A stretch of 64,000 nucleotides of DNA. It comes from Candidatus Thiothrix sulfatifontis (lineage in GTDB: Bacteria; Pseudomonadota; Gammaproteobacteria; Thiotrichales; Thiotrichaceae). The notes beneath the pieces are model-generated. The model did no database searches. It saw only the letters and a list, made by a program, of their open reading frames with translations, and had not been told where the DNA came from. The DNA lies in NCBI GenBank assembly GCA_022828425.1, contig CP094685.1, forward strand, positions 3,016,046-3,080,045. Reading direction: 5' to 3'. Both the position numbers and the translations under genes were made by a program. Of the stretch, positions 32,362 through 54,393 are shown in pieces. The first letter of the stretch is position 1. Every line of letters begins with the position of its first letter.

Positions 32362-32370
32362 GAAGGAAGT

Positions 32371-32916
32371 TTGGACATGACCGACACCCCGAAAAAAACC
32401 TTAAGCATTACGCGCAAACCTGCCAACAGTGGCCCGGTAAATGCCACCGCTGGCACAATCCAACGCAGCGGCAAACGCATCATCAGGCGTGACGAACTGC
32501 CGCAAGTGCAGCGCATCCCCGCACCCAAACCCAAACCAGCCGCCAGCGCCAAACCCAAAAAGCCGCGCAAGCCACCCGCACCTAAGAAGCAAGTCACACC
32601 ACCGTCACAACTGAAAATCCGCGAATTGAACGACCGCCTAAACGCCTTCCGCGTCTGGTTCGACTTCCAACCGCTGGCAATCGGCATTGAAAAGGAAATT
32701 TTCCGACTGGTGAACGAGGAGCACTTCCCCGGCGCAAGCAAAAGGGTTGTGCAAAAGCTGCTGAGGATGCACGTTAATCACGGTGTCTACCTGCAAAACC
32801 TCAAACACGGCACAGACCGCTATCAGCTCGACGGCACACCCGACGGCACGATTGATGACTATCAGCGCCAGCTCGCAACGGACACCCTCACCAAACGACT
32901 ACAGGGCAAAAGCTGA
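32371..32916 (+). CDS. ProQ/FinO-domain RNA-binding protein with basic Lys/Pro-rich N-terminal region
   Basis: 181 aa. PLAIGIEKEIF...SKRVVQKLLRMHVNHGVYLQNLKHGTDRYQLDGTPDGTIDDYQRQLA aligns with E. coli ProQ PLKIGIFQDL...[47 protein letters not shown]. Confidence 0.7.
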   Translation: MDMTDTPKKTLSITRKPANSGPVNATAGTIQRSGKRIIRRDELPQVQRIPAPKPKPAASAKPKKPRKPPAPKKQVTPPSQLKIRELNDRLNAFRVWFDFQPLAIGIEKEIFRLVNEEHFPGASKRVVQKLLRMHVNHGVYLQNLKHGTDRYQLDGTPDGTIDDYQRQLATDTLTKRLQGKS

Positions 32917-33209: not shown

Positions 33210-33212
33210 GCC

Positions 33213-33620: not shown

Positions 33621-33639
33621 CACCAACGGAGGGCGCAAC

Positions 33640-34077
33640 ATGGGCGCAATTGCATACAAAACCGACTTTTACGAATGGACGCAAGAGCAAGCGCAACTCT
33701 TGAAAGAGCACCGTTTAGGTGAAATCGACTTGGCAAACCTGATAGAAGAGGTTGAAAGCATGGGCGCAAGTGAACGCAACGAATTCGCCCATCGTCTCGA
33801 AGTGCTGCTGATGCACATGCTCAAGTGGCAGTATCAAGTCGATTACCCCTATCGGCGTAGCTGGCAGCTAACCATTGTGGAGCAACGCAAACGACTAGCG
33901 GCAAGGCTGCGCAAAAGTCCAAGCCTAAAACACCATGCAGGTGAAGAGCTGGCAGACGCTTACGACGTGGCAAAGATCGGCGCGGAACGTGAAACGGGGC
34001 TACCTGAAAGCACCTTTCCAGAGGTTTGCCCGTGGAGCTTTGAGCAAGTGCTAGACCAAGAATTCATGCCAGCCTAA
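33640..34077 (+). CDS. DUF29 domain protein
   Basis: 145 aa. DFYEWTQEQAQLLKEHRLGEIDLANLIEEVESMGASERNEF...LLMHMLKWQYQ is typical of DUF29. Confidence 0.7.
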   Translation: MGAIAYKTDFYEWTQEQAQLLKEHRLGEIDLANLIEEVESMGASERNEFAHRLEVLLMHMLKWQYQVDYPYRRSWQLTIVEQRKRLAARLRKSPSLKHHAGEELADAYDVAKIGAERETGLPESTFPEVCPWSFEQVLDQEFMPA

Positions 34078-34170
34078 GAGCCGCACCTGATGCGGCTTTT
34101 TTGCGTCTTGGATTCTTCATGCCTGCTTGCGTGTCTGCGCATGACCGCACGCTTACAGTGTAAGTGCCGA
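34078..34170 (+). repeat. Cassette-junction repeat R1 (short form, includes intrinsic terminator AGCCGC-N7-GCGGCT-T6)
   Basis: Matches the two ends of R3 (49531-49587 and 49732-49767) but lacks its internal 144 bp. Confidence 0.7.
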
Positions 34171-34262
34171 TCATGAACGTCTTAATGTCCAAAAAAATCA
34201 AACACAGTTACATGATGCGCTTGCTATCCTGTACAACATCTTGAACAACAGGGGGATGGATA

Positions 34263-34385
34263 ATGCAAGCAGTAACCTACAGTGAGGCCAGAAACAACCT
34301 AGCAGCGATGTTAGATAAATTTGCTGAGTTCGCCAGTCAATGCAAAGCGCCTTTTGCAATCATTGGAGAACGTGCGCAAGGGTAA
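34263..34385 (+). pseudogene. Truncated Phd/YefM antitoxin (N-terminal ~19 aa recognisable)
   Basis: MQAVTYSEARNNLAAMLDK... then unrelated sequence and a stop after 40 aa. Confidence 0.55.
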
Positions 34386-34415
34386 GGAGTTGGTGAATAA
34401 AGAGTTGGTAGACGC

Positions 34416-34517
34416 ATGATCTGTTTTGAAGCGCAAGGCTGGGAGGATTACTTGCACTGGCAACAAAATTGGCAAAGCAACACGCGGCAAACAGCGAGAA
34501 GCGGTCAAGAGCACTAA
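34416..34517 (+). pseudogene. Truncated YoeB/Txe toxin (N-terminal fragment)
   Basis: MICFEAQGWEDYLHWQQN... parallels E. coli YoeB LIWSEESWDDYLYWQETDK, then diverges and stops at 33 aa. Confidence 0.55.
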
Positions 34518-34635
34518 CAGCCGCACGGCTCGCCCACTCGCTGCATTGCTGGCGAAATGCGATCCTGATGCACCTACGCCAGAAGAAGCCCGCGAATGGG
34601 AAAGCACACCACCTATCGGTAACGAAATCATCTAA
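34507..34635 (+). pseudogene. C-terminal fragment of a MazE/AbrB-type antitoxin
   Basis: ...KSTNSRTARPLAALLAKCDPDAPTPEEAREWESTPPIGNEII parallels the C-terminus of the intact MazE-like protein at 49838-50104 (KSATRRKKYKLADLLSKCDPSAPIPTAVTEWDNLPATGNEVW). Confidence 0.5.
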
Positions 34636-34639
34636 ACAA

Positions 34640-34835
34640 GAGCCGCACCTGATGCGGCTTTTTTGTGTCTGGGATTCCCCCGGCCTGCTTGCGTGTCAAG
34701 GTCGGGCGTAGCCCGTTCACTTTAACCTTGACTCGCTTTCTGAAAGTAAACTATTGCAAGGGGTACAACATGGTTGCACCCCACTAGCCTGGCGGCAATG
34801 AGCGACAAGAAGAGAAAAACGCCGGTTATCGTCAC
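34640..34835 (+). repeat. Cassette-junction repeat R2 (long form)
   Basis: Near-identical to R3 from the terminator hairpin through GGCGGCAATGAGCGACAA. Nested hairpin GTCAAGGT[CGGGC..GCCCG]..ACCTTGAC (34695-34732) and near-palindrome GGGGTACAAC-ATG-GTTGCACCCC (34760-34782). Confidence 0.7.
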
Positions 34836-34942
34836 CACTGCGCTGAGCCTTCGCAACCTGACCGTCGCAACCTGACCAGCGGCTTTTTTATGCCTGTCTT
34901 TCCTGTTACGTTGGGATTTTTGAAAAACACGGGTAAACCAAA

Positions 34943-35230
34943 GTGGAAGAAACCAAACGATCTAAACGCATAGCCCGCGCAATGTCGGGCGAACATTACG
35001 ACCATCGCGCACAACTGGCAGTTGAAAGACTTGCTGTTTACCATTCGCGGGAACTGGACAGAGGAGAACTACCCGTAGCCCTTTACTATTCCGGCAAAGT
35101 GTCTTTGTGCCTTACCCCGGAGTTACACGCACAAGCAGCAGCAGCGGCTAAGGCATCATCCCGAAGCCTGAATGGTTGGCTCGTTGAAATCATCAAGCGA
35201 GGCGTTGAAAACCCCATAGAAAAGTTATAA
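34943..35230 (+). CDS. Orphan RHH antitoxin-like protein (HicB C-terminal/CopG type)
   Basis: 95 aa. YSGKVSLCLTPELHAQAAAAAKASSRSLNGWLVEIIKRG resembles the YSGKFNLRLP...SLN RHH tail of HicB-family antitoxins. No partner toxin is adjacent. Start uncertain. Confidence 0.4.
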   Translation: MEETKRSKRIARAMSGEHYDHRAQLAVERLAVYHSRELDRGELPVALYYSGKVSLCLTPELHAQAAAAAKASSRSLNGWLVEIIKRGVENPIEKL

Positions 35231-35237
35231 ATAGGGT
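35226..35237 (-). repeat. 12-mer ACCCTATTTATA, inverted copy upstream of the recombinase gene
   Basis: Plus strand reads TATAAATAGGGT. Exact reverse complement of the copies at 36151 and 36201. Confidence 0.7.
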
Positions 35238-35312
35238 TTCTTTGTGGTTTTTTATAGGCTATTATTCTAAATATGTCTTAAGCCTATTTACATGAAACAC
35301 AACGGGGGAACT

Positions 35313-35864
35313 ATGGCACTGGTAGGATATGCACGGGTTAGCACACTTGACCAAGATCACACGGCGCAACTTGAACGCCTGACAGCGGCGGGATGTACCA
35401 AAGTATTCAGCGAGAAGAAAAGCGGCACAACTCAACAGGGCAGAGCCGCGCTTGATGAATGCCTTGGGTGGTTACGTGAAGGGGATACGCTGGTATTCAC
35501 CAAGATAGACCGGCTGGCACGTTCACAGCGTGACCTGCACAACATGGTTCACGACCTTGAAAAGCGCGGCGTGTCGATCATGGCGTTAGATCAAGCGATT
35601 GATACCCGCACGGCGGCGGGTAAGGCATTTCTCGGAATGCTGGCAGTATTCGCAGAGTTTGAAACCAACATCCGCAAAGAGCGGCAACTTGAAGGCATTG
35701 CTAAGGCAAAAACCGAAGGTGTCTACAAGGGGCGCAAGGCAACCGCCAAGGCAAAGCGGGCAGAGGTTGAAGCCTTGCTCACCCAAGGCATGACTAAGCC
35801 GAAGATTGCCGAAACCTTGGGGATCTCTGTTGCCAGCGTTTACAACGTACTGAAAGCCGCTTAA
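35313..35864 (+). CDS. Serine recombinase (resolvase/invertase, Hin/Pin-like)
   Basis: ATG 35313 (ORF track starts at 35292). MALVGYARVSTLDQ catalytic Ser motif and C-terminal HTH KPKIAETLGISVASVYNVLK. Confidence 0.85.
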   Translation: MALVGYARVSTLDQDHTAQLERLTAAGCTKVFSEKKSGTTQQGRAALDECLGWLREGDTLVFTKIDRLARSQRDLHNMVHDLEKRGVSIMALDQAIDTRTAAGKAFLGMLAVFAEFETNIRKERQLEGIAKAKTEGVYKGRKATAKAKRAEVEALLTQGMTKPKIAETLGISVASVYNVLKAA

Positions 35865-35883
35865 CCAATACATCAGCATTCAC

Positions 35884-35909
35884 AGCCCGCCACGATGCGG
35901 GCTTTTTTG
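35884..35909 (+). terminator. Intrinsic terminator after the recombinase gene
   Basis: AGCCCGC-CACGAT-GCGGGCT followed by a T-run. Confidence 0.7.
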
Positions 35910-35970
35910 TGCCTGATGCACGGGGGAAGGGCAAACTAACTTATTTAATCCCGCACTCCCTGAATCCTGA

Positions 35971-36212
35971 ACCCTAGTATCCACGGGGTTTTGAGGGGTT
36001 ATGAATGAGTTTATATAAATGCTTAAAAAACCGGCAATACAGAGGGGCTTAATAACTCAGTGTTTCAGCCATTGCCCACACGATACCCTATGAGCCACTA
36101 TAATTAGACTTAAGACCCTGTTATAAAACCCTCTATTAATTCATAAAACAACCCTATTTATAGGTTTTTTGATAGGTGTTTTGCTCTCTAGCATGGGTTT
36201 ACCCTATTTATA
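35971..36212 (+). repeat. Array of six direct ACCCT-(N)-TAT iterons, the last two exact 12-mers ACCCTATTTATA
   Basis: Copies start at 35971, 36085, 36115, 36128, 36151 and 36201. Copy 36151 lies in a 26-bp imperfect palindrome AAACAACCCTAT-TT-ATAGGTTTTTTG. Confidence 0.6.
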
Positions 36213-36476
36213 GTGGTTGTGGGTAGGGGTGGGGGTCGGCAGAGAAAGCGAATTGCTCTACAGCAAGGTGGGTACTTGGATGTCTGCATGAGTGCTATGC
36301 GGTTTTTCTGGGAATTCTTACCAGTGGCAATAAGAAAAAGATAGATAATCGGTAAATGATAAGATTTTATTATGTTTGTGGATTGCCCGCGAAGGGGTAA
36401 GCGTGGGTTGTTGAATGTCCCTACTGTCACACGATATGGGCTTACAGTGTGCTTTTTTAGGTACGGACTTATCACC

Positions 36477-37883
36477 ATGAGCATGAAACCACTAGATGAC
36501 ATTATCCGGGGCGCATTGCGCCAGACTAGCGCACATCACAACAAGCGTCTGATTGAACCCTCTGGCAGTGAAGGGGCTTTTGCTGCAATGGTCTTGGCAG
36601 AGTTTGACCGGGTTAATGCACAGGCTCTGGTGCGTGAATTCCGCATCTTATCGGGCGCTGAGACGGGCTTCAGCAATGTGGCATTGCCCGCCAGTTATCA
36701 ACGTGAGGTTATCCGCCAAGCCCTGACGGATTTGAATATTCTGAACTTGGTACGGGTCGCTACGGATTCGGCGGCAATGGCAACCACTGAAATTCCTTAC
36801 GAAGAGCGTTCAGCGGCTTCTATCCCGAATGACGGCATTGTGTACGAAGGTCAAGGCATCCCGTTTGCTGGCGTGGGTTTGAAGCGTGATACAGCCTATA
36901 TTCAAGCAATGAAGCTGGCGTTAAAGGTCACTAACGAAGTTATTCACTTCTCGCAGGCAAGCGGCATTAATTGGGATGCGTGGGGCGATAGCATCGCCAC
37001 GAATGCGCGGGTTATTCGCGAATTAATCAGTTTGCGGATTACCAATGAAATGCAGCGGGCGGCGGATTCCTTCAACGCGGTACACGTTACGGGTGAGGCG
37101 TTTACCGCTTCAGCAGATGGCGTGATCAAAACGGCACAATTCCCGATTGTGCGACCGCACCAAGCGCGTGATCTGCAAGGTAATGCCATCGGGAATCCTG
37201 AAAACCCGTTAGTGATCACGATCAATGGCACAGCGATTCCATATTTCATCAATAAGAAAGATTTACCGGCTGGTACTTACTGGACATTCAGCAACATTAA
37301 CCTTGGCTATATCCAGTTGGTTAACCAATTGGGGCAAGTGACGGGCGACGGGTCGGAAGGGACGATTAGCTACAGCACGGCAACCAATCTGTTTAAGTTC
37401 GACATTCAAGCGCCAGTCGGTACGAAATACACCCATCACCTGAATGACTTGCTAACCGCTATCGGTGATCGTAAGGCGGTGTTATCCGGGCAACGTTACG
37501 CACGTCCTGACTACGCTGTAATGTCTTACATGCTGAATAACGAAGTGACCAAGGCGGAGCAGTTCGTGGCATCCATGCGACGTGATGGCACGGCAACCAC
37601 CTTGCAAGGTGATTTGGACATGGTGAAGGGTTTGCCAGTGTTCGACACCAACGCACCGGGCGATTTTGGGGATATGCGTATTTTGCTGGGGCAACGTGGC
37701 TTAACGGGTTACACCATCGCCAAGCCCTACAGTATGGGCGCACCGTTTGAGGCAACCGATAGCAACGGTTATCCGACGGGAGAAAAGATTGCTTATGGTG
37801 AGGAATACAGCGCAATCCATACACCCAAGCCAGTACGCAACCGTTATACATCCGTTTTGGTTTATGACAGTACCACACGTTAA
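36477..37883 (+). CDS. Hypothetical 468-aa protein, tentatively HK97-fold major-capsid-like
   Basis: ORF 36372-37883 with start uncertain (ATG 36477 or 36483). The patterns LNILNLVRVATDS...EIPYEE, VYEGQGIPFAG...AMKLALKVTNEVIHFS and INWDAWGDSIATNARVIRELISLRITNEM recall Phage_capsid-type proteins. Not verified. Confidence 0.4.
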   Translation: MSMKPLDDIIRGALRQTSAHHNKRLIEPSGSEGAFAAMVLAEFDRVNAQALVREFRILSGAETGFSNVALPASYQREVIRQALTDLNILNLVRVATDSAAMATTEIPYEERSAASIPNDGIVYEGQGIPFAGVGLKRDTAYIQAMKLALKVTNEVIHFSQASGINWDAWGDSIATNARVIRELISLRITNEMQRAADSFNAVHVTGEAFTASADGVIKTAQFPIVRPHQARDLQGNAIGNPENPLVITINGTAIPYFINKKDLPAGTYWTFSNINLGYIQLVNQLGQVTGDGSEGTISYSTATNLFKFDIQAPVGTKYTHHLNDLLTAIGDRKAVLSGQRYARPDYAVMSYMLNNEVTKAEQFVASMRRDGTATTLQGDLDMVKGLPVFDTNAPGDFGDMRILLGQRGLTGYTIAKPYSMGAPFEATDSNGYPTGEKIAYGEEYSAIHTPKPVRNRYTSVLVYDSTTR

Positions 37884-37897
37884 TAGGAGGTGTTTCA

Positions 37898-38095
37898 ATG
37901 CCCGCAACGCAAGTTAAAACCAAAGTTGAATTCAAGATGACCAAAGTTCCATTCAAGCTTAATTTGCCTGAAGACATTCATGACTGGCTTGCAAAACGTG
38001 CTGAAGCTAATGGTCGGGCGCGTAGTTCTGAATTGGTGCAAATTCTGAAAGCCGTAAAAAGCCAAGATGCTGAAAACGTACCAAAGGTTTTGTAG
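37898..38095 (+). CDS. Arc/MetJ-type ribbon-helix-helix DNA-binding protein
   Basis: 65 aa with a strong AGGAGG RBS. FKLNLPEDIHDWLAKRAEANGRARSSELVQILK is a typical Arc-family RHH. Confidence 0.7.
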   Translation: MPATQVKTKVEFKMTKVPFKLNLPEDIHDWLAKRAEANGRARSSELVQILKAVKSQDAENVPKVL

Positions 38096-38102
38096 TTGGG
38101 AT

Positions 38103-38140
38103 GGCAAGGGGCTTATTGGTATCTGTTCACCCTTGCCTTT
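38103..38140 (+). terminator. Intrinsic terminator after the Arc-like gene
   Basis: GGCAAGGG-N19-CCCTTGCC followed by TTT. Confidence 0.55.
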
Positions 38141-38390
38141 AGTGGGTTATGTTTTTGAGTTGGAGCATAGCCCGCTCTTTTTATGCTTATGGAATTATGT
38201 ATAAATTCCAATGATTTAACGATTTTTTGTTGTGAGCCGCGCTTTTATACCCTGTGGCGTGGCATTCGGGCGGCGGGTAACGTCATGTGGTGCTAATGAC
38301 CTTAGCACGCAACCCGACCGCCTGCTTTTTATTCCCCATCTGTTGCAATCCCTAACCCCTTCGCATTACCGTCTGCTAAGCCGGGACAAT

Positions 38391-38470
38391 AAAAAAGGGG
38401 AAAGTTAGTGGCTTTCCCCTTTTGCGTGTTCCTGAGTAGAAGTTCTGACGATCTGACAGGAAGGTAAAGT
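38391..38470 (+). promoter_or_regulatory. Conserved hairpin plus leader preceding the element A cargo gene
   Basis: A-run, GGGGAAAG/CTTTCCCC hairpin, T-run, then TGACGATCTGACAGGAAGGTAAAGT-ATG. The counterpart at 52660-52738 has compensatory stem changes. Confidence 0.6.
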
Positions 38471-39133
38471 ATGGGCGAAGGCGCGGGTAACGACAAGAGC
38501 CATTATGTGATTGATGGTGAGGACTGGGCAAAGTGCAATAACCCATTCGATACGGTTATTGATGAACTCGCAGAACACGCGCCGCAACTGCTAGGAAACA
38601 CCGACCATGCAAAGCTAATACGCCAGTCTTTCAGGGCATTCGTGAAGCCAGAAGGCATTATATATTCAGGGATTTTTATTAGAGGAGGCTCGTGCTTTTG
38701 GCTGCATTTACTGAGAGCTGAATTGATGAACGAATTCAAGCACAAGACTGTAAAGACCAAGCCGCAAAGATGGTGTGAAATGAGCAAGGGCGTTAAGCGC
38801 GAACACTATAAAGACCTGCATAAGCAAGTGGTCAAGATGGTGGGTTCGCTGGAAAAAATGCGCCTAAGCGACGATGAACTATTGTTGTCAGCAATTACAA
38901 AAACAGCATCAGAAAACGACACTAGCATCATTGAATTGCTAACCGCGTTAGATGACCACATCAGCAAGTTATCACACCAAAGAAGCACCTTAGAGAAATA
39001 CATTGATAGCGATATTCGCAAGTCAAAGAAATACATTGATAGCGATATTCGCGGGTCAAAACCTGTAAGTTTGCCTGTTGACGTGCGGGTATTTGTTAAA
39101 GTGATGGCGCGGCGATTAGTAAATGGCGAATTC
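38471..39133 (+). pseudogene. Cargo gene of element A, 5-prime part (interrupted by IS30-family element)
   Basis: Reading frame continues in phase at 40244-40396 once the IS is removed (271 aa restored). Internal 33-bp tandem duplication (KYIDSDIR x2 at 38996-39052). No recognisable domain. Confidence 0.6.
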
Positions 39134-40243
39134 GTATCATAAGTGCATAACCCGTTAATCGAGACGGGGTGCGGCTTTCCTCATAAGGTCAGAGGCAAGA
39201 TGTGGTAAAAAGCATCCCGAAAAACCACTAACGGGAGAGCCTTATGGCATACGGACATCTTACCTCTGAAGAGAGGCATTATATCGAAACACGGCACAAG
39301 ATGGAGGATTCCACCACGGCAATAGCGTTAGCACTGGGACGCAGCCAATCGACGATTAGTCGTGAACTGGGTCGTAACCGAGGTCAACGTGGCTACCGTC
39401 ACAAGCAAGCGCACAACAATGCTCAGTGCCGCCATGCAGAGAAGCCGAAAGCGGTCAAGTTAACCCCGGCACTGACGCTCAGCATTGATAGCCTGCTGGA
39501 ACAGCAATGGAGTCCTGAACAGATCAGCGGCAGACTAAAAGGAGAAGGCAAGGTGTGTGTTTGCCATGAAGCCATTTACCAGCATGTCCTGAAGGACAAG
39601 CGTGCGGGCGGCAAGCTGTACCTGAACCTGCGCCGCCATGCGAAGACCTACCGTAAGCGTTATGGCAGCACCACGGGCAGTGTCAAAGGCATCCCCAACC
39701 GGGTGGACATTGACGAACGCCCAGAGGTGGTCAATCAGCGTGAACGGCTAGGCGACTGGGAAGCGGACACCATGATTGGCAAGGGACACCAAGGCGCATT
39801 AGTGACACTGGACGAACGCAAATCCAAGCTACGTCTGGCGTTCCCAGTAGCGAACAAGACTGCTGAAGCGGTGACGTGCAGCATTATCACCTTGCTGTCC
39901 GGCTTCAAGGAGTGGGTACACACGCTCACCTTCGATAACGGCAAAGAGTTTGCCAAACATGAGCAAGTTGCCCAAGCCATTGGGTGCAAAACGTATTTCG
40001 CCAAGCCCTACCATTCGTGGGAGCGCGGGCAAAATGAGAACGCCAATGGGCTGTTACGCCAATACTTCCCCAAAGCAATGGGATTGTTGGACGTGACGAC
40101 TCGACAGGTGTTGGAGGCTGTACATAAACTCAACAACAGACCAAGGAAATGTCTGGGGTTCAAGACACCTTACGAGGTGTTCCGCGAGCTATCCGGCATG
40201 GATGCTGAAAAGTTGGTGGGTTATGCACTTATTACTTGAATTC
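39128..40243 (+). mobile_element. IS30-family insertion sequence
   Basis: Terminal inverted repeats GAATTCGTATCATAAGTGCATAACC (39128-39152) and its partner at 40219-40243 (21/25 match). The transposase stop lies inside the right IR. Confidence 0.8.
39244..40239 (+). CDS. IS30-family transposase
   Basis: 331 aa. N-terminal HTH (LTSEERHYIE...GRSQSTISRELGRN) and DDE region (WEADTM...TFDNGKEF...NENANGLLRQYFPK). Confidence 0.9.
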   Translation: MAYGHLTSEERHYIETRHKMEDSTTAIALALGRSQSTISRELGRNRGQRGYRHKQAHNNAQCRHAEKPKAVKLTPALTLSIDSLLEQQWSPEQISGRLKGEGKVCVCHEAIYQHVLKDKRAGGKLYLNLRRHAKTYRKRYGSTTGSVKGIPNRVDIDERPEVVNQRERLGDWEADTMIGKGHQGALVTLDERKSKLRLAFPVANKTAEAVTCSIITLLSGFKEWVHTLTFDNGKEFAKHEQVAQAIGCKTYFAKPYHSWERGQNENANGLLRQYFPKAMGLLDVTTRQVLEAVHKLNNRPRKCLGFKTPYEVFRELSGMDAEKLVGYALIT

Positions 40244-40396
40244 ACCAATCATTTTTCCCTTGATCGTGTGCCAAACCGTTTGATAGCCAGTATTGCCAGC
40301 CTAAAATATGAAAAATGGCAAGGTGAGGCTGTGGTGATAACAGAGAAACACGTTGAGGATTTAACAATAAATCAAGACCTTAACGCACCTTTTTAG
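40244..40396 (+). pseudogene. Cargo gene of element A, 3-prime part
   Basis: TNHFSLDRVPNRLIASIASLKYEKWQGEAVVITEKHVEDLTINQDLNAPF, in frame with 38471-39127 across the IS. Confidence 0.55.
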
Positions 40397-40639
40397 CCAA
40401 TACCGGATAGACCCCCCTAAAAAACTTGCACTCTATCCGGTCGGTAGAATCGGGGTTGTGTTGTTCAATGTTCCGTGGAGAACGCCAATCGAAACGATAG
40501 GCGAAAAAAAACCCCGAAACCGTATGAAGCGGCGGCGGGGTAGAAACAATTTTACGGAAGCAATTTTATGATACTCACCAGACACACACAACCAAAACCG
40601 AATGATTCCTCGAAATCATCCCAAAAAACAAAACACACC

Positions 40640-40684
40640 TTATCCGCTGATAAGTTGACCGAATCCCCGACTTTCCCCCATACT
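40640..40684 (+). promoter_or_regulatory. Conserved sigma70-like promoter with adjacent TTATC-N4-GATAA inverted repeat (element A)
   Basis: TTATCCGCTGATAA (40640-40653), -35 TTGACC (40655-40660), 18-nt spacer, -10 CATACT (40679-40684). Identical block at 53752-53796. Confidence 0.5.
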
Positions 40685-40690
40685 GCCCCT

Positions 40691-40784
40691 GTCGATGCAA
40701 AGCACCGGCAAACAGCAAAATTCTGGGACTATCATCCCTATATCTGGCGGCAAACCCGCCTTGACGACGCAGCGGGATTTTTTA
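40691..40784 (+). ncRNA. Candidate ~90-nt leader or small RNA ending in an intrinsic terminator with a competing upstream hairpin (element A)
   Basis: Hairpin 1 is GGCGG(40746-50)/CCGCC(40756-60). Hairpin 2 is CCCGC(40755-59)/GCGGG(40772-76) plus T6. The two share bases, so they are mutually exclusive. Confidence 0.4.
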
Positions 40785-40936
40785 TGCCCGTAGACTTCGC
40801 ACACAGCGGCTTTATGCCGGGTATGCGTGGAATACAACATGGTGTAAACCGAAACAAGCGCGTCGTGCTCCAGATAGACGATGATAGTACCCGGCAATTT
40901 TTGCCAAATATCAAAACTAAATCTGGAGCGGTCATC

Positions 40937-41284
40937 ATGACAGCAATCACTATGGGCAACACTGCCCGCACTCTATCGGCGTACCTGCCACACCTCCCTA
41001 TTGCACTGCCCAAAGCAGGCAAAAAACGCACCCCGATCACCGACCTTGTGTATGAGTCGACGCAAACCGGCCTGATCGTGTATCAGGACAACATCCCCGT
41101 CGCATGGGTATACCCCGGATACCACAAAGGTCAAATCGCCAACCAACCCGCAACGTGCAACTTTGTCGACGTCGCCTTTCACCGTCGCACCGAACACGGG
41201 GTGAACCTCGAAACACACGATTTTCTCACCCTGCAAGAAGCCCTCGACTTCGTGCGCACCACCTTCGGCGGAGGTGTGCAATGA
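40937..41284 (+). CDS. Conserved hypothetical protein (115 aa)
   Basis: ATG 40937 after GGAG. ORF track extends to 40568 across the promoter/terminator region. 5 differences from the B copy over 115 aa. Confidence 0.5.
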   Translation: MTAITMGNTARTLSAYLPHLPIALPKAGKKRTPITDLVYESTQTGLIVYQDNIPVAWVYPGYHKGQIANQPATCNFVDVAFHRRTEHGVNLETHDFLTLQEALDFVRTTFGGGVQ

Positions 41285-41514
41285 TCAGTTCGATAGACCG
41301 TGTTATCAGCATTGGGAAAGTGTACGAAGACCTCGAAAACCTACACAACGTGATGCAAGTGTGTGTGGATTCGATGCAATACCACAACGTCCTAGAGCTG
41401 GACAGTGTTAAGCAGGTGTTGATCAGCGCAACCGAAAAAGCCTATGCCGCCTACAACGCCGCGAAAGAAATTCATGATGAGATGCTGGCGGAATTAAAGG
41501 ACGGTGAAAAATGA
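41281..41514 (+). CDS. Hypothetical protein (77 aa), element A specific
   Basis: ATG overlaps the upstream stop (ATGA), with a GGAGGTG RBS. Position equivalent to the non-homologous 54390-54620. Confidence 0.45.
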   Translation: MISSIDRVISIGKVYEDLENLHNVMQVCVDSMQYHNVLELDSVKQVLISATEKAYAAYNAAKEIHDEMLAELKDGEK

Positions 41515-41822
41515 GCACGAAACTCGACACCAGCCCCAACCGCGCAACCCGTCGCATCCGTCGCAACCGTGACGCCATCCGCCGGGCGCAAATCATTGAG
41601 CAAATCCCGTCCTACACCGTCAACGGCGATCCGCTGCTAACCGAAAAAGAGTCGGCGGCCTATCTCGCAGTCGGCGCCCGCACGCTCGAAGCATGGCGTC
41701 ACCGCCACCCCGACCGCCTGCCCCACATCCGTGTCGGGCGCAACGTGCGTTATCGCCGCTCGGTGCTCGATAACTACCTGCAAGCCCAAACCGTCACCGA
41801 CGGGCGCGGGGTACGCAAATGA
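41511..41822 (+). CDS. AlpA/excisionase-type HTH DNA-binding protein with basic N-terminal extension
   Basis: 103 aa. LLTEKESAAYLAVGARTLEAWRHRHPDRLPHIRVGRNVRYRRSVLDNYL is an HTH_17/AlpA-like pattern. 4 substitutions from the B copy. Confidence 0.7.
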   Translation: MSTKLDTSPNRATRRIRRNRDAIRRAQIIEQIPSYTVNGDPLLTEKESAAYLAVGARTLEAWRHRHPDRLPHIRVGRNVRYRRSVLDNYLQAQTVTDGRGVRK

Positions 41823-42022
41823 GCCACCCACAAACCAACCTGACCCCGGCACTCGATTTGCACCCCGATCACATCGCCCTGACAGATGCGGAATGGATAG
41901 AGCGCCTAAGCAAAACCCATGCAGAAATCAAGCGCCGCCAGCAACTGGCGCAACCCGACAACAGTTATGCATTTTCTGCATACCACTATGTGCGTTGGAT
42001 TAACCGGAGCGTAGGACTATGA
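41819..42022 (+). CDS. Hypothetical protein (67 aa), homologue of 54925-55128
   Basis: Translationally coupled. Shared motifs include KRRQQLA-PDN-Y-FSA and RWINRSV. Confidence 0.45.
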   Translation: MSHPQTNLTPALDLHPDHIALTDAEWIERLSKTHAEIKRRQQLAQPDNSYAFSAYHYVRWINRSVGL

Positions 42023-42363
42023 ACGAACCAACATTATCACTAGTCAAGCTCGCACAAGAGCTTTGCAACAGCGGGCGCACCCCACAAGAGGCCGTCAGTG
42101 GTTTGCTGGTGGCAGCGCTCAATAATAAGAGCCTCGAATACCTGCAAGGTGCAGACGTTAATCAAGCCATTGCGGAACTGGAGCGCCGTTTCAGCGGCTA
42201 CCTGATCAAGCCATGGGAAAGCGCTCTACAAGAATTAGGCTATGCCCTCGAATGCATCCGCCAATTAGTAGCACTGGCAGAAGAGCACGAAACCGACGCG
42301 GCGGTGTGTGTACGCGTCGCGCAACGTTTCTTGAAAAAGTTTGAGGGCAACAACCATGGCTAA
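42019..42363 (+). CDS. Hypothetical protein (114 aa)
   Basis: Coupled ORF between the 67-aa gene and rep. Its stop overlaps the rep start. Confidence 0.4.
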   Translation: MNEPTLSLVKLAQELCNSGRTPQEAVSGLLVAALNNKSLEYLQGADVNQAIAELERRFSGYLIKPWESALQELGYALECIRQLVALAEEHETDAAVCVRVAQRFLKKFEGNNHG

Positions 42364-43639
42364 GCGTTTCGACCGTGACGAATGGGAAGATTCCCTCACC
42401 CGCATTAACCGCATTCTGGCAGAGAAACACGCCCGCGAAAGCGGCGCGTTTTCCGCTGTTTCTGGCGACGCTGGCGGCGCTGAATATCCCCCGTACTGTA
42501 ATACGGGGGGTTATGACGATTCCCACAAAATCAGCAAGTTACAAAAAACCGAAAAATCCTATGACCTGAATGTGACGGCTGTTGACTGGTTGCGCCTAAC
42601 CACTACCGACCTTGATGCATACGCGCAAACCATGGGCGATTTGCTGGCAGATGGCGGCCTTTTCAACCATGCCGATATGGATGTTAAATGGACAGATAAA
42701 GGAATGCACGGCTATGACTCTTCAGCCGCTATCCTGATATGGAAGGACAACGACTACCTGACAGTAGGCCACATTGCCAAGGCTGAATCAGGCCGCAATA
42801 AAGGCGGATTGCTGGAGCTAACCGGAACAGGTTGCAAAGTGCTGCAACTCGAACACCCTGCTTTGTGGCTGGAATTGTTCAACTTGTTGCAGTACCACGA
42901 CTGGCGAATTTCCCGCGTTGACGTGGCGTTAGACCTGCATGGCGAATACGCCCGCGAAATGGGCTACACCGTGCCAAGCCTGCTACTGCAAGCCAAGAAT
43001 AGCGGCCTGTTCCAGTCCGACCGCCTACGCAATCCCAACATGAAGCAATCATTTAGCATGGCGGGCGATTGGTCGGATTTAGCCATTGGCAACATTACCC
43101 CGCACACCTATGACCCGTTAGAGCATTGCCCGGCGGGTTTGACTGCCTATGTCGGCAACCGTAAAACAGCCGATGATTTTTTTCGGGTATACGAAAAAGG
43201 CAAAGAGCTATTAGGTGGCATGGCGGAACCCGAAAGCATAGATCGGGGCTGGATCCGCATTGAGCACGAAATGAGCCGCAAAGCCACCGGGCGCAATATC
43301 CCGCTTGAAGTCATGTTACGGCCTGATGCGTACTTTTGTGAAAGCCGATCAGGTGTGCGCACAATTCTCGATGCAGTCCGTGAACGCCAGTCATTAGAGG
43401 CCGCGCTTCAGTACCAGCGTGAACAATTCAAACGTGAGAAAGGCTTGCTGCTATTCAAAAAGCTGCATTGGGCGCGTCATTCTTACGGGCGCTTAGTGCG
43501 CACGCTGGTTGAACAAGGCATGGAAGCGAGCGAAATTGTCGATATGCTTTCTCGCATCAGCGGCTTAAAAGAATTCGTATTCGATCTGGCAGACCCACCA
43601 CAAGAATACGCGCGGTTTCGGGTAGAGGTGGCTGTATGA
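42356..43639 (+). CDS. Rolling-circle replication initiation protein, Rep_trans-like family
   Basis: ATG 42356. VDWLRLTT, HGYDSS, LELTGTGC, ISRVDVALD, GLTAYVGNRKTADDFFRVYEKGKE and WIRIEHEMSRKA fit the replication initiation factor (pT181 RepC/CTX RstA-type) pattern. Confidence 0.7.
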   Translation: MAKRFDRDEWEDSLTRINRILAEKHARESGAFSAVSGDAGGAEYPPYCNTGGYDDSHKISKLQKTEKSYDLNVTAVDWLRLTTTDLDAYAQTMGDLLADGGLFNHADMDVKWTDKGMHGYDSSAAILIWKDNDYLTVGHIAKAESGRNKGGLLELTGTGCKVLQLEHPALWLELFNLLQYHDWRISRVDVALDLHGEYAREMGYTVPSLLLQAKNSGLFQSDRLRNPNMKQSFSMAGDWSDLAIGNITPHTYDPLEHCPAGLTAYVGNRKTADDFFRVYEKGKELLGGMAEPESIDRGWIRIEHEMSRKATGRNIPLEVMLRPDAYFCESRSGVRTILDAVRERQSLEAALQYQREQFKREKGLLLFKKLHWARHSYGRLVRTLVEQGMEASEIVDMLSRISGLKEFVFDLADPPQEYARFRVEVAV

Positions 43640-43712
43640 GCAAGATATTAAAATTTACCTTTAGACTCGTTGGAACAACTTCCCACGCTCAAAAAACCGG
43701 AGGTGATGCGGT

Positions 43713-43925
43713 ATGAAAACCGATTATTACATCAACCTAGATAACGAAGTTGTACAGGTAGAAATGCTCGAATGGCTCGAAGATGGTACGTACTTTGACG
43801 AAGATCAAAACGATGATGAAAGCATTCTTGTGGAACTGCCATGTTCTCGTTATTGCATTGGTGATGAAGATGGCGACGGCATCAGCGTATGGCTAAATGA
43901 GGATATGCAGGAGGTGATTCTGTGA
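43713..43925 (+). CDS. Hyper-acidic 70-aa protein
   Basis: 21 Asp/Glu versus 2 Lys/Arg. GGAGGTGAT RBS. 10 differences from the B copy at 57643-57855. Confidence 0.55.
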   Translation: MKTDYYINLDNEVVQVEMLEWLEDGTYFDEDQNDDESILVELPCSRYCIGDEDGDGISVWLNEDMQEVIL

Positions 43926-44305
43926 ATCCACTACTTTCACCCGCTGAGCAAACGCACCTCGACACCGTGCGCAACCGTCAGCACTTCCCTGATGACCTTG
44001 ACCGCACCCCGGCAAAAGCAGGCGTAAGCGATTTTGCCCACTGGTTAGCGCGTCTCGATTATCACGCGGCGTTTGTCCGTGTGGTGCAATTGCTGGTGCT
44101 GCTGAGCATCGCTTTCGCCATCTATAAGCTGGTGCTGATCTGGGCTGAATACCCCGGCGTCGCATTCCTGCCATTCCTCAATATGCACACCCCGCTGATG
44201 ATTTTCAGCGGATTATTCACAGCAACTTACATTCAGCATCGGGAATCCGAAGTTGTGGCAATTATCGCCCTGCTTTCCACGATGATGAATTCATTACTGG
44301 TTTAA
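43922..44305 (+). CDS. Small membrane protein (127 aa)
   Basis: GTG start after AGGAGG. 2-3 TM segments. N-terminus NPLLSPAEQTHLDTVR is homologous to 58067-58423 (NPLLTPREQAHVASVR). Confidence 0.5.
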   Translation: MNPLLSPAEQTHLDTVRNRQHFPDDLDRTPAKAGVSDFAHWLARLDYHAAFVRVVQLLVLLSIAFAIYKLVLIWAEYPGVAFLPFLNMHTPLMIFSGLFTATYIQHRESEVVAIIALLSTMMNSLLV

Positions 44306-44315
44306 GGAGAAGATC

Positions 44316-46014
44316 ATGAGACAACAGCAAAATCGAAGCCAAGAAAAAGAAATCATGGAAAAGCAATTAGAAGTACACAAAAAGCAAGACCGGCGCGGCG
44401 GTATGCTGCTGAGTTTGGGCGGTGTGTTGACCGCGTTAATGTACTTCATGTTCGAGAAGCACCTGTTTTTGGGTGAAGCAATCACGTGGTCGGCCTATTT
44501 CAACGAATGGCATTCGGCACTGGATTTTATCCTGATGTTTGTCATCGTGGTGATGAGCGCAATATTTTTGGCATGGGTAAAACATCATGCATACCTGCAC
44601 TTCGGTCTATACGGTTCCATCGGCCTGATCGTGTTCACCGTCATCGGGTTTGCCCTGTTCGCGGAATTCTTCAGTAGCAGCGCCAGCCAAGACACCAAAA
44701 GCCGGGTACTGCTGCAAAATGATCAAGCCTATCAGTCGACGCTCGCACCCGTCGCCAGCATCGCCCCTGCCCTGCCCACTGAGCAGCAACGCGGCGGCAA
44801 TTGCCAAGGCCGAACAGATGTATGCTCGCTGCATGGCGAACCTAGGCAAGCCGGGTTACAAGCATTGCGATGGCGACAAAGCCACCTTGAGCAGCCTCAA
44901 AGCCTCTGATGCAGCGGCGCTACAGGCAGCAAAAGAAATTGCAATACAGACCAACGCCGCCACCACCAAAATGAACCACGACCGTCAGGACAAGCTCAAA
45001 GCCGATTCATACAACGCGGTCATCGTCTCGATTGCGCAAGCGATCGGCTCACTCACTGTCACCGACTACAAGGACAACATCAAAGCCGCAACCGTGCTCA
45101 CCATGTTGATCGTGGCAATTGCTTTTGAAATCCTCCACCACTTCTTAGCTCACGCGAAAGAACGCGCTCAAAATGCCGTCTATGCAATTGAACTAGAACT
45201 AGCCAAGTACGAAGGCTCGGCACTGCCCCCAACATCCGACAACGTGACACCTGACAATGACGGCGCATTCAAACAGACCGGCGTCGGGTTCACTGCCAAC
45301 CTCGGCAAATCGCCAGCCGCGAACCACTCACCTACCCCGGCGGAAACGGACAAGCCCCTGTTCAAATACCAGCAAAAACCACCAGCCGATCACAGTGGTT
45401 TCGTTGGCTTCGTTAATACCAACAACCTGAAAAAATCCGCCAGTGACGAACGCCCATTCTACGGATTCAAGGATGCAAAAAAGCAATCAGCACTCGATGT
45501 GCTTAACCTTGCTCACGGATCCGAAGACCGGAAAACCCGCGAAAATCGCACCGTCAACAAAGAGCACTTGCCTACCCTGCCAGCCACTCAGAAAACAGGT
45601 TTGACCGGCATCAGAAATCCGGCATTAGGCAAAAATGAAGCGGTTTATGAGCTACCTCTCGCTGCTGAAAATCCACGTGTAATTACACGTGTACCGGATG
45701 GCGAAACCACGCTCGATAACGGCCTACAGGCGGCGCAAAAAGCACGTGTAATTACACGTGTACCCGACAACGAATCCACACTCGATAGCGACCTGTACGA
45801 AGAACTGAAAGCACGTGTAATTACACGTGAAATCAGTCCAACATTCAGACCTATCATTCAGTGGTTAGCGGGTAAGGCCGTCGGCAAAAACACCCAGCAT
45901 CGGCAACTGCTGGCAGCGGCGGCGCTCGACCGGATGCACCGTGAAAACGTGTTGACCCTGAACCCAGCGAACGACGGTTCGGGCATCAAAAAAGCCAAGT
46001 ACATTGTGGTCTAG
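44316..46014 (+). pseudogene. Large membrane-anchored protein, apparent +1 frameshift near 44778 (homologue of 58435-60744)
   Basis: ORFs 44316-44909 and 44650-46014 together are colinear with the intact B protein. The frame switch falls within about 44700-44790, with the single base A at 44778 the best-fitting point. Confidence 0.6.
45674..45829. repeat. Three perfect 18-bp palindromes CACGTGTAATTACACGTG at 69-bp period inside the coding sequence
   Basis: Copies at 45674-45691, 45743-45760 and 45812-45829. Each encodes RVITR within a 23-aa protein repeat. Confidence 0.9.
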
Positions 46015-46028
46015 CCGCAATCACCAGA

Positions 46029-52303: not shown

Positions 52304-52659
52304 GCTTTTGCAAGTAGCTGCATGGTTTTGCATAGAAACTGCAAGTGACAAAAACCGCATCCAGCCCTATACCGACAAGGGCTAGGGGTGCGTGACCCAG
52401 TGCATATTTTTCGTATAGACAATTTACGCGGGTGCGGTGGGGCAAGTGGGCGACGGTGCGGCGGGGAACATAACGGGGGGAAATGGGGAATGTTCACGGT
52501 ATTGAGAGGCGGAGTTCATCATTCAGAGCACGCTGGTTCATACATCGTGCAACCGATGACCCCAAGCAACCAGGTTGAGCGGATATTAAGCCCCGTTCAA
52601 ATCAACGGGCGACTTGATCTATACAGCCGATTGACAGACAGTCGACAACCTAGCGGCAT

Positions 52660-52738
52660 AAAAAAAGGGGAACTGTTGAGAGTTCCCCTTTTTACTTGTC
52701 CCCGTGGATGTTATGACGATCTGACAGGAGATAGAAGT
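52660..52738 (+). promoter_or_regulatory. Conserved hairpin plus leader preceding the element B cargo gene
   Basis: A-run, GGGGAAC/GTTCCCC hairpin, T-run, then TGACGATCTGACAGGAGATAGAAGT-ATG. Counterpart of 38391-38470. Confidence 0.6.
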
Positions 52739-53542
52739 ATGGTGCAACAGCAAGCAGGGTGCAACCAATGGGGTGGAGAACTTGGAGCAAAAGAGCGTGA
52801 GGATTTTCTAACGCTCCCCGAATGGCATAGAAAAATGTTTTTAAACTTTCCTTGTCCTTTGGATACAACAAATATAGAGCGAATCAGAAAAAGCTTGTCT
52901 GCTATGAACAATGGCAATGATGAAGCTAATATTTTATGGTCAAGAGCAATTCTTGCACGTCGGAACGCTTCAGAAGAAATGAGTATATTAATGCTTGCCT
53001 GCATGGTTTTTCCGATGCTCGAATATAGTGAGAGTAGGGTTACATTTGAGCATAACTTGTTGGAATCTTTAGGCGTTGAGTTAGTAATTTGGCAAGAAGA
53101 GCATCCGTACTTTGTCTTTGCATTTTCAGACGAAGAGTACGAACAAATAATTAGGAAACCGGTAAATGTAAACGATGTAAATAAGTTTGCCGAAACAAGA
53201 CCGCAAGGCTATGAAATTATTTTGGGTCTTACCGTGTGGCAAAATTATATTAAGGAAAGAAAAGAGGAATCAGAAAAATATAGGAAGTATTTATTAGGTG
53301 AGATTTTTGGAGACGATCAACAGTTATCACCCGAACTGCTACCAGAGCCAGCACCAGCAGCACCACCACAAAAAAAGAGCGCCTACCAACTCGAAAAAGA
53401 AAAATATCGCAGAGCTGTTTATCAGGAAGTAATGAACGAAATGGGCGTTTCAACCAAGAAAGGCATATTGGTAGAGGAGGCGGCGAAACGTGCGGAATGT
53501 AGCGAGAAAATGATTAGAGAAGCGCTAAAAGCTGGTGAGTAA
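52739..53542 (+). CDS. Cargo gene of element B: hypothetical 267-aa protein with C-terminal HTH-like segment
   Basis: ATG 52739 after AGGAG. ORF track extends to 52388 through a terminator hairpin. C-terminus GILVEEAAKRAECSEKMIREALKAGE resembles an excisionase/MerR-type HTH. Confidence 0.55.
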   Translation: MVQQQAGCNQWGGELGAKEREDFLTLPEWHRKMFLNFPCPLDTTNIERIRKSLSAMNNGNDEANILWSRAILARRNASEEMSILMLACMVFPMLEYSESRVTFEHNLLESLGVELVIWQEEHPYFVFAFSDEEYEQIIRKPVNVNDVNKFAETRPQGYEIILGLTVWQNYIKERKEESEKYRKYLLGEIFGDDQQLSPELLPEPAPAAPPQKKSAYQLEKEKYRRAVYQEVMNEMGVSTKKGILVEEAAKRAECSEKMIREALKAGE

Positions 53543-53751
53543 TCGTTTGGAGGTTTTTGGTAATTTTTGGTAGTTTTTGGTGATTTACGCGACTATAAGT
53601 AAAAAATCGGCACAATAAAAAAAGGCCAGCAATGCCGCTGGCCTTGGAAAAAAGTACAGCCGATATGATAACCAGACACCAACAAGCATTCAATCACCAA
53701 AACACGAAACCGAATGATTCCTCGAAATCATCCAAAAAAACCAAACACATC

Positions 53752-53796
53752 TTATCCGCTGATAAGTTGACCGAATCCCCGACTTTCCCCCATACT
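53752..53796 (+). promoter_or_regulatory. Conserved sigma70-like promoter with TTATC-N4-GATAA repeat (element B)
   Basis: Same 45-bp block as 40640-40684. Confidence 0.5.
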
Positions 53797-53802
53797 GTCC
53801 CT

Positions 53803-53896
53803 GTCGATGCAAATCATCGGCAAACAGCAAAATTCTGGGACTCTTATCCCGACACTAGGCGGCAACACCGCCAACACGATGCAGGCGGTTTTTTTT
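53803..53896 (+). ncRNA. Candidate ~90-nt leader or small RNA with competing hairpins and terminator (element B)
   Basis: GGCGG(53858-62)/CCGCC(53868-72) versus CCGCC(53868-72)/GGCGG(53884-88) plus T8. Confidence 0.4.
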
Positions 53897-54045
53897 CGTC
53901 TGTAGACTACGCAAGCGGTTTTATGCCGGGTATGCGTGGACTACCAGAGGAAGCAATTCCGAATAAGCGCGTCGTGTTCCTAGTGAGCGATAAGAGTACC
54001 CGGCAATTTTTGCCAAATCTTAAAACTCAATTAGGAGCGGTCAAC

Positions 54046-54393
54046 ATGACAGCACTCACTATGGGCAACACTGCCCGCACTCTATCGGCGTACTTGCCAC
54101 ACCTCCCTATTGCACTGCCCAAAGCAGGCAAAAAACGCACCCCGATCACCGACCTTGTGTATGAGTCGACGCAAACCGGCCTGATCGTGTATCAGGACAA
54201 CACCCCTGTTGCATGGGTTTATCCCGGATACCACCAAGGCCAAATCGCCAACCAACCCGCAACGTGCAACTTTGTCGACGTCGCCTTTCACCGTCGCACT
54301 GAGCACGGCGTGAACCTCGAAACACACGATTTTCTCACCCTGCAAGAAGCCCTCGACTTCGTGCGCACCACCTTCGGCGGAGGTGCAAAATGA
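54046..54393 (+). CDS. Conserved hypothetical protein (115 aa), B copy
   Basis: ATG 54046 after AGGAG. ORF track extends to 53632. Confidence 0.5.
   Translation: MTALTMGNTARTLSAYLPHLPIALPKAGKKRTPITDLVYESTQTGLIVYQDNTPVAWVYPGYHQGQIANQPATCNFVDVAFHRRTEHGVNLETHDFLTLQEALDFVRTTFGGGAK

Follow-up and report, generated by a model that had tools for sequence, protein, structure and literature searches.

The DNA analysed here, called the window, is a 64-kb stretch of the Candidatus Thiothrix sulfatifontis genome (64,000 nucleotides of contig CP094685.1, positions 3,016,046 to 3,080,045). It contains a tRNA-Met gene (61340-61415, minus strand) adjoining rpoD and, on its left, two related elements of about 15 kb each arranged in tandem: element A (~30898-46610) and element B (~46650-61338). 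Att-like repeats bound the pair at 30846-30892 and 61338-61384, and a third copy is found near 46451-46658. The backbone common to A and B consists of a tyrosine integrase (int), a ProQ/FinO-domain gene, an unannotated gene that we call the anchor gene, an HTH_17 gene and then small genes. Their replication initiators are unlike (Rep_trans in A, P2 gpA-like in B), almost everything between the ProQ and anchor genes differs, and comparison by blastn showed the two elements to be highly mosaic. The subject of this analysis is a short conserved unit, composed of a hairpin, a leader and a start codon, and the gene that lies between this unit and the anchor gene. This place is called the slot, and its features are listed in Table 1.

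Blastn of element A against element B aligned positions 38391-38474 with 52661-52742, with 75% identity over 85 columns (E=2e-7). The DNA flanking the ~85-nt unit is unrelated in A and B, and the unit forms an island within ~5-7 kb of unlike sequence. An earlier interpretation made from the letters alone (the sequence-only reading) had described a conserved block of ~80 bp with an A-run, a hairpin, a T-run, a ribosome-binding site and a start codon; all of these parts were recovered. The leader motifs TCTGACGATCTGACAGGA and AAGTATGG follow the T-run in both units, and the tandem TCTGAC motif occurs at these 2 places only in the 64 kb (0.11 expected by chance). The hairpin of the unit (hairpin 1) has a stem of 8 bp and a folding energy of -17.5 to -19.8 kcal/mol. 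Its U-tract is longer on the minus strand (U6-7) than on the plus strand (U4-5), and in A the terminator scan scored it as a minus-strand terminator (38423->38393). From stem, energy and U-tracts, hairpin 1 is best read as a bidirectional intrinsic terminator.

Relatives of the slot proteins were collected by an exhaustive HMMER search and a word-indexed search, and the contigs encoding them were then examined. A profile of the anchor gene matched 22 database clusters, all from Thiothrix-like sources, and extended the set by 23 related loci of genomic, metagenomic or viral-contig origin. This sample contains a small number of independent lineages, and short contigs account for many of the related loci. 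With a profile of the unit, exactly one copy per element was found, at a constant position, both in the window and in five outside loci that are independent: Thiothrix subterranea (L001, with the near-identical L002 and L003), a metagenome-assembled genome of an uncultured Thiothrix (L009) and three metagenome contigs (L028, L029 and L030). A degenerate form is present in L004.

The stem of hairpin 1 exists in three versions (GGGGAAAG/CTTTCCCC, GGGGAACT/AGTTCCCC and AGGGAACC/GGTTCCCT). Across 7 sequences, pairs 1, 7 and 8 of the 8 in the stem show changes of both bases and pairing is kept throughout, in agreement with the compensatory changes noticed earlier between A and B. The longest invariant stretches sit in the leader, between the hairpin and the ATG: CAGGA and AAGTATG are invariant across leaders, the latter in 8/8, though the adjoining spacer varies. 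At 76-82% identity in pairwise comparisons, the unit is no less conserved than the neighbouring anchor gene, for which the same pairs give 62-88%. The upstream 200 nt and the bodies of the slot genes are at ~50% in these pairs, which is the baseline of the alignment method. Conservation of the unit ends exactly at the ATG. Because the leaders are still ~80% identical while the slot proteins of family A (described below) are only 36-48% identical, the ~85-nt unit is, on this comparison, under constraint and not merely a recent recombination scar.

A second conserved leader type was observed at the same position in L010 (9320-9412), L012 (9352-9442), L011 (4692-4786) and L014 (8908-8999). In this type a long hairpin (GxCGGG..GGCTGATCACCGAA..CCCTTTGCAG..CCCGxC), where two pairs show compensatory changes and an inner stem covaries, is followed by a repeated AAGGG motif and then the ATG. 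Neither leader type had a match in Rfam, and the leader pattern had none in IMG/VR.

Further candidate features of the leader were assayed in silico. A stem occluding the Shine-Dalgarno sequence recurs in minimum free energy folds, with one compensatory change between the window B copy and L001, yet it is not claimed here: compared with shuffled sequences, the second leader stem gave z values of +0.6 to -2.1, and RNAalifold recovered the terminator only. An Ogr/Delta-type activator site (TGT-N12-ACA, present in 4/7 leaders and centred ~21 nt before the ATG) was rejected by its geometry, because transcription from a promoter 55 nt further on would begin within the gene. Finally, assigning the leader to one strand by the asymmetry of G·U and A·C pairs was given up, the folding energies being without bias (-11.0 kcal/mol for the plus strand and -9.8 kcal/mol for the minus strand).

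The slot gene of A is split by an IS30-family insertion sequence (IS). Its transposase gene lies at 39244-40239, the terminal inverted repeats are imperfect (GG(C/T)GAATTC..ATAAGTGCATAACCC), and an AAT target duplication is found at 39122-39124 and 40247-40249. Aligned with three intact homologues, the restored protein has 266 aa, and not the 271 aa first deduced after removal of the IS. Six proteins make up family A: the window copy, P0028, P0029 and P0030, together with a C-terminal fragment from L015 and the occupant of L009 (start at 9050), a distant member whose relationship lies in the N-terminal ~120 aa (profile E=2e-8). Slot A has an in-frame tandem duplication of 33 bp (38994-39060, KYIDSDIRKSK/KYIDSDIRGSK), which the homologues lack.

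In the slot B protein, the C-terminal module begins at ~53351 and is predicted to form three helices. Family B comprises the window copy, the T. subterranea copy and P0003-P0005. P0003-P0005 keep 95% identity over the last 57 aa, and their body is only ~20-25% alike. The C-terminus had previously been called helix-turn-helix (HTH)-like; Pfam and PDB searches gave nothing significant for it, and the support for DNA binding comes instead from the co-variation of the module with adjacent repeats, described below. Sub-threshold similarity of the module to phage transcription regulators was recorded (PerC 0.025, HTH_28 0.059, phrog_836 0.005). An IS3-family element interrupts the T. subterranea homologue of slot B (L001 8686-9945, CP133217). 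As several other IS copies are present in the T. subterranea element, this insertion is perhaps not slot-specific. Together with the IS30 copy of window A, it brings the independent IS insertions in slot genes to 2.

Profile-profile comparison indicates that families A and B are unrelated in sequence (hhalign probability 0.1%). Even counting distant variants, these two families only are found behind the hairpin-leader-ATG unit. Other related elements carry other occupants. L010 (T. lacustris) and L012 (T. fructosivorans) encode short slot proteins with the B-type C-terminal module, L011 a 378-aa protein with a divergent version of this module, and L014 an unrelated protein of 142 aa. More distant Thiothrix/Thiolinea elements have small ribbon-helix-helix (RHH) genes at the slot and an AlpA-like HTH gene nearby. 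Finally, in L031-L033 (IMG/VR contigs), gpM/HTH_17 is followed by the anchor gene with a single hairpin between them and no slot gene. The slot genes are AT-rich (GC 38-44%; GC at third codon positions, GC3, 35-47%) in elements of ~51% GC, and the core genes (int, ProQ, gpN and anchor) have a GC3 of 54-66%. The exchangeable gene slot proposed in the sequence-only reading is thus well founded: it holds two unrelated families, B-type proteins with swapped bodies, other or nearly no occupants, and genes of foreign composition. Since diversity exists beyond the two genes of the window, the objection that related elements carry these two only does not apply, with the restriction that it does describe the genes behind this particular leader.

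Each slot gene type is followed by its own cis element. Tandem direct repeats with a period of 10 or 11 bp stand behind all B-type genes and begin anywhere from an overlap with the stop codon to 20 nt past it. The arrays contain 3-5 repeat copies, and the repeat unit changes with the C-terminal variant in five lineages. The TTTTTGGTAA array behind slot B is the sole array with a 10-11-bp period in the 64-kb window. In L004, the window-B module and the window-B repeats are kept together despite a different N-terminal body. Behind family A genes, perfect inverted repeats are found instead of arrays; their arms are lineage-specific and they have no T-run.

A second hairpin (hairpin 2), led by an ACA(A)TAAAAAAAG motif, stands directly before the anchor gene in every element. 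It has no plus-strand T-run and could terminate minus-strand transcription only; plus-strand transcription from the slot gene should therefore be able to enter the anchor operon. The anchor gene of A heads a conserved operon running through the HTH_17 gene to Rep. Homology between A and B had been said to resume near 40568 and 53665. Indeed, the ATGATA starts of the two anchor genes correspond at these positions, and at least 8 elements keep ATGATA at the start of the anchor gene; the first ~30-40 nt differ, however, and blastn alignment resumes at 40595 and 53707. The promoter-operator that was thought to be conserved downstream of the slot is not conserved between A and B, each family having its own cis element there. 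Two further features were observed at the anchor start. At 53665-53693 on the minus strand lies a promoter-like TTGAAT-17-TATCAT, whose -10 is the reverse complement of the anchor ATGATA start and which is aimed at hairpin 2. A direct repeat GAA(A/G)CAATTTTA x2, spaced by 14 bp and ending on the anchor start codon, is common to element A (40543-40568) and L009 (9976-10001), and is not found in B.

Table 1. Features of the slot in elements A and B, and corresponding features of related loci (those with an L number). Positions without an L number refer to the window.
Feature	Position	Strand	Description
Unit A	38388..38473	+	blastn, terminator scan, profile
Unit A, hairpin 1	A-run 38391-38396; stem 38397-38404 / 38412-38419; T-run 38420-38423		stem GGGGAAAG / CTTTCCCC
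Unit A, leader	38444-38457; 38458-38464; 38471-38473		tandem TCTGAC; Shine-Dalgarno AGGAAGG; ATG
Slot A gene, N-terminal 218 codons	38471..39124	+	alignment to homologues
IS30-family insertion sequence splitting slot A	39125..40246	+	NF033563, E=1.9e-88
Slot A gene, C-terminal 48 codons and stop	40250..40396	+	continuous with P0028-P0030; junction between ..ARRLVN and HFSLDR..
Inverted repeat behind slot A	40402..40441		perfect, ACCGGATAGA-20 nt-TCTATCCGGT; 6 nt after slot A stop; no T-run
Hairpin 2 of A	40504..40540	-	A8 run, CCCCG...CGGGG; directly before anchor gene; no 3' T-run
Anchor gene of A	40568..41284	+	238 aa; no known family; right flank of slot
Unit B	52657..52741	+	blastn, profile
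Unit B, hairpin 1	A-run 52660-52666; stem 52667-52674 / 52681-52688; T-run 52689-52693		stem GGGGAACT / AGTTCCCC
Unit B, leader	52712-52725; 52739-52741		TATGACGATCTGAC; ATG
Slot B gene	52739..53542	+	267 aa; variable body, Pro-rich linker, conserved C-terminal helical module of ~57 aa
Tandem direct repeats behind slot B	53554..53586		TTTTTGGTAA x3.3, 10-bp period; 12 nt after slot B stop
Hairpin 2 of B	53617..53645	-	A7 run, GGCCAGC...GCTGGCC; before anchor gene; scored as minus-strand terminator
Anchor gene of B	53665..54393	+	~90% identical to that of A from 53707 on
ProQ/FinO-domain gene	A 32371..32916; B copy 48190-48735	+	block 92% identical between A and B; context only
Repeats, window B (also L001, L004)			TTTTTGGTAA, 3.3 copies
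Repeats, L010			TTAGGGCATC, 3.2 copies
Repeats, L012			TGACATCTTC, 3.0 copies
Repeats, L008			GGCAATGTTC, 5.0 copies
Repeats, L011			GAAAAAAAGCT, 3.3 copies
Inverted repeat, L015			TCAACATA-24-TATGTTGA
Inverted repeat, L030			CATCATAAG-19-CTTATGATG
Inverted repeat, L009			GCGGCCTTAAGTCC-11-GGACTTAAGGCCGC
Capsid trio loci	L009 6241-8919; L010 6630-9096; L011 1628-4189; L012 6516-8937; L014 5372-8301; L031-L033

With moderate confidence, we propose that the unit combines a bidirectional terminator with a translation-initiation leader and forms the left junction of an exchangeable regulator-plus-operator cassette, located upstream of the replication operon. It occurs in a family of ~15-kb integrative elements of Thiothrix and Thiolinea, which insert at tRNA-Met and are related to P2-type phages. 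Hairpin 1 would act as a two-way terminator and, in sister elements, close the upstream P2-type capsid operon; in L009 and L030 it lies directly 3' of the gpO or ClpP-like gene of a gpN-gpM-gpO capsid module. The ~50-nt leader contains the ribosome-binding site CAGGA, the invariant AAGTATG start context and the tandem TCTGAC. As this leader is common to all elements, it would presumably be read by a factor shared among them. Homology for replacing the intervening DNA would come from the two conserved sides, the unit to the left and the anchor gene to the right. The segment that they enclose holds a fast-diverging gene of AT-rich composition and the cis element of that gene.

Within this cassette, the slot protein would bind its own repeats and control the downstream anchor/replication operon. 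It would be a regulator of the immunity or switch type, with signal sensing by its variable part. This role is proposed because the repeats lie between the slot gene and the operon and because hairpin 2 has no plus-strand T-run; the placement of the array just before the replication operon likewise suggests control of that operon by the slot protein. For slot B, we infer a DNA-binding regulator, with the adjacent array as its operator, from the domain layout, the five-fold co-variation and the sub-threshold regulator similarity. The same logic applies more weakly to family A. The cassette is an example of module swapping and not a new kind of system. If this interpretation is right, the locus illustrates how control circuits are diversified in small mobile elements: a conserved terminator-leader junction and a conserved downstream operon allow regulator and binding sites to be swapped as one piece, and shuffling extends to the sensing body and the DNA-binding module of the regulator itself. 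The five natural pairs of protein module and repeat could moreover be used to study the specificity of DNA recognition.

Several results weigh against the cassette. No convincing sigma-70, sigma-E or sigma-54 promoter was found in the leader, by scan or by eye. DNA binding is backed by no database family for either slot protein, as sequence searches of Pfam, PHROGs, PADLOC, NCBIfam and PDB gave nothing significant. The AlphaFold2 models, built on shallow alignments, are unreliable (pLDDT 48 and 42). The co-variation of module and repeats was seen in five lineages only, and the inverted repeats behind A-type genes could be simple RNA hairpins. Finally, because 2 of about 9 slot copies are IS-split, the slot gene is dispensable in the integrated state, which is a poor fit to an essential master repressor.

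A FinP-like cis-antisense RNA on the minus strand might also explain the conservation of the unit. This explanation is compatible with the cassette, and we consider it rather unlikely. On F-like plasmids, FinP and FinO exert antisense control of traJ. Here, the RNA would start from a -10 CATACT (the reverse complement of AGTATG), extend across the slot gene's ribosome-binding site and stop at hairpin 1; the ProQ/FinO protein of the element would stabilise it, translation of any slot gene would be repressed, and a similar arrangement would be possible at the anchor gene. The likeness to FinP/FinO lies in the element-encoded FinO/ProQ protein, the conserved leader over the ribosome-binding site of a putative regulator and the terminator hairpin with a U-tail on the opposite strand. 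Indeed, a ProQ/FinO-domain protein is encoded by every element (PF04352, E=3.7e-12 in A and 8.5e-12 in B; the gene is present in L001 too) and is highly conserved between A and B. The longer minus-strand U-tract of hairpin 1, its score as a minus-strand terminator and the invariance of AAGTATG beside a varying spacer point the same way, as does the fact that the genes upstream of the units already end in their own plus-strand terminators (38141-38176 in A, 52272-52298 in B). Moreover, -35-like hexamers lie 17-18 nt upstream of CATACT in lineages A, B/L001 and L009, and hairpin 2 is a minus-strand terminator only, with the promoter-like sequence of B overlapping the anchor start codon. These -35 candidates, however, are in non-conserved coding sequence and below the scan threshold, and L004 has no such -35. 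The absence of strand bias in the folding energies, a second stem no more stable than shuffled sequences and the negative Rfam search also argue against an antisense RNA.

It is very improbable that the unit is functionless, i.e. homology left over from recent recombination with the hairpin as the terminator of former upstream DNA. The elements are highly mosaic, and a second conserved terminator block (34076, 34638, 49529) borders different genes; both observations favour such a residue. Yet the unit is 76-82% identical where anchor genes are at 62-69% and family A proteins at 36-48%, its conservation stops exactly at the ATG, the stem changes are compensatory, and the longest invariant stretches are in the leader, outside the terminator. 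We regard as quite improbable, too, the defence hotspot put forward in the sequence-only reading, in which the slot would hold anti-phage cargo as in P4-like satellites and its proteins would be novel single-gene immunity or interference factors. AT-rich, fast-diverging orphan genes replaced between conserved flanks are compatible with this idea, the IS hits would suit a costly cargo gene, and the elements resemble phage satellites, which are known to carry defence hotspots (PMC9122126; PMC13586616). However, neither the two slot genes of the window nor their neighbours were assigned to a family by PADLOC, and Pfam and NCBIfam gave no match either. The occupant is always one small helical protein travelling with lineage-specific repeat sites, and distant elements have RHH or HTH regulators at the slot. 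The position also differs: the hotspot of P4-like satellites lies between int and the psu-delta-sid operon (PMC13586616), and the Thiothrix slot lies 6-7 kb from int, between the accessory/capsid module and the anchor-Rep operon. No match to the psu, delta or sid families was found among the genes scanned. The recognised accessory genes (BrnT/BrnA, HicB, a resolvase; toxin-antitoxin) cluster next to int and ProQ, away from the slot.

The slot was compared with other variable regions of mobile elements. With the P2 and P4 hotspots it shares a variable region between conserved flanks in small integrative elements of the P2/P4 world. It differs from them in being a single small gene without a recognisable defence gene, and it sits elsewhere than either the P4 hotspot or the P2 hotspot, which is between gpA and gpQ.

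The exchange of immunity regions in temperate phages is well known, from the imm regions of lambdoid phages and from P2-like phages, which fall into immunity classes and have C repressors that bind direct repeats. As in these phage modules, a regulator gene and its cognate repeated sites would be swapped as a unit between conserved flanks, and relatives carry unrelated or highly divergent versions. Sites that change with the C-terminal part of the regulator, as expected of a repressor and its operator, were found in the five B-type lineages, and A-type genes have distinct inverted repeats. The Thiothrix arrangement departs from phage immunity modules in that its left boundary is a terminator plus leader running exactly to the start codon, the slot gene is co-directional with its putative target operon, and the proteins are outside known repressor families.

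Morons, a concept of Hendrix and colleagues, are self-contained accessory transcription units between conserved phage genes. The absence of the slot gene in L031-L033, its foreign composition (GC 38-44% versus ~51%) and the hairpins on both sides recall them. Unlike morons, the slot is followed by a hairpin lacking a coding-strand T-run, the leader scan gave no promoter for the slot gene, and the cis sites suggest a role within the element and not host-directed cargo.

Stl proteins are the master repressors of SaPI/PICI satellites, and the sequence-only reading had considered such a repressor for the slot. As an analogy in function this can be kept: a highly variable protein occupies a fixed position in the element, and in the B type a predicted DNA-binding part, which is conserved and co-varies with the repeats before the operon, is joined to a variable part possibly sensing a helper-phage signal. 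As a family assignment it fails. There is no sequence relationship, and the slot protein is not a member of the Stl family, because its gene is co-directional with the operon and not divergent from it, does not adjoin int and tolerates IS disruption, as seen in two elements.

Genes of the P2 family are found just upstream of the slot in L009, L010, L011, L012, L014 and L031-L033. They form a trio of the P2 type, consisting of the major capsid protein gpN (PF05125, E down to 1e-116), the small terminase gpM (PF05944) and the scaffold/protease gpO (PF05929). In some sister elements a ClpP-like protease replaces gpO, and gpM often has an HTH_17 tail. The sister elements with the capsid trio have the same backbone (int, ProQ, anchor gene, HTH_17, Rep). 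Elements A and B of the window have other genes at that place and have lost the capsid module. As the sister elements are only ~15 kb long, they have no room for tail genes. On this gene content they are candidates for capsid-encoding satellites of P2-like phages, a type of which we found no description. A further step is speculative and in our view unlikely: the Thiothrix elements would be a previously undescribed family of P2-dependent satellites, with the slot as a helper-sensing modular switch and the leader as the target of an antisense RNA that is assisted by ProQ/FinO and common to all elements. This joint proposal would make the cassette a variable sensor body, a portable DNA-binding module and a matching operator array, swapped between the leader and the replication operon. 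If the cassette interpretation is right, the locus also flags an uncharacterised P2-related element family in sulfur-oxidising Thiothrix, which may be capsid-encoding satellites.

Other observations concern the two elements outside the slot. The integrase of A (31045-32361) is intact. That of B (46851-48180) is found as two overlapping frames, an Arm/SAM-like one (46851-47870) and a catalytic one (47677-48180), and is probably a frameshifted pseudogene. Just upstream of unit A, at 36372-38095, lie genes for a 503-aa protein and then for a 65-aa Arc-like RHH protein; the former has no Pfam match and is similar to phrog_22848 (E=2e-14). A 259-bp tandem duplication (2.0 copies, 97% identical) is located at 50645-51150, in the accessory region of B. 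Near the right end of each element, tandem repeats at 45674-45829 (69 bp x2.3) and 60371-60525 (57 bp x2.7), with the palindromic cores CACGTGTAATTACACGTG and CTACACGCGCGTGTAG, are contained in the 3' parts of large unannotated open reading frames, and may be origin, packaging or protein-binding sites. Finally, a conserved terminator hairpin followed by ~35 nt (AAGAGCCGCACCTGATGCGGCTTTTTT..GCCTGCTTGCGTGTC) occurs at 34076-34135, 34638-34832 and 49529-49720, twice in A around a 560-bp insert and once in B, with different gene neighbours each time. Since this second block also borders different genes, terminator junctions conserved at module boundaries seem to be a general habit of these elements.

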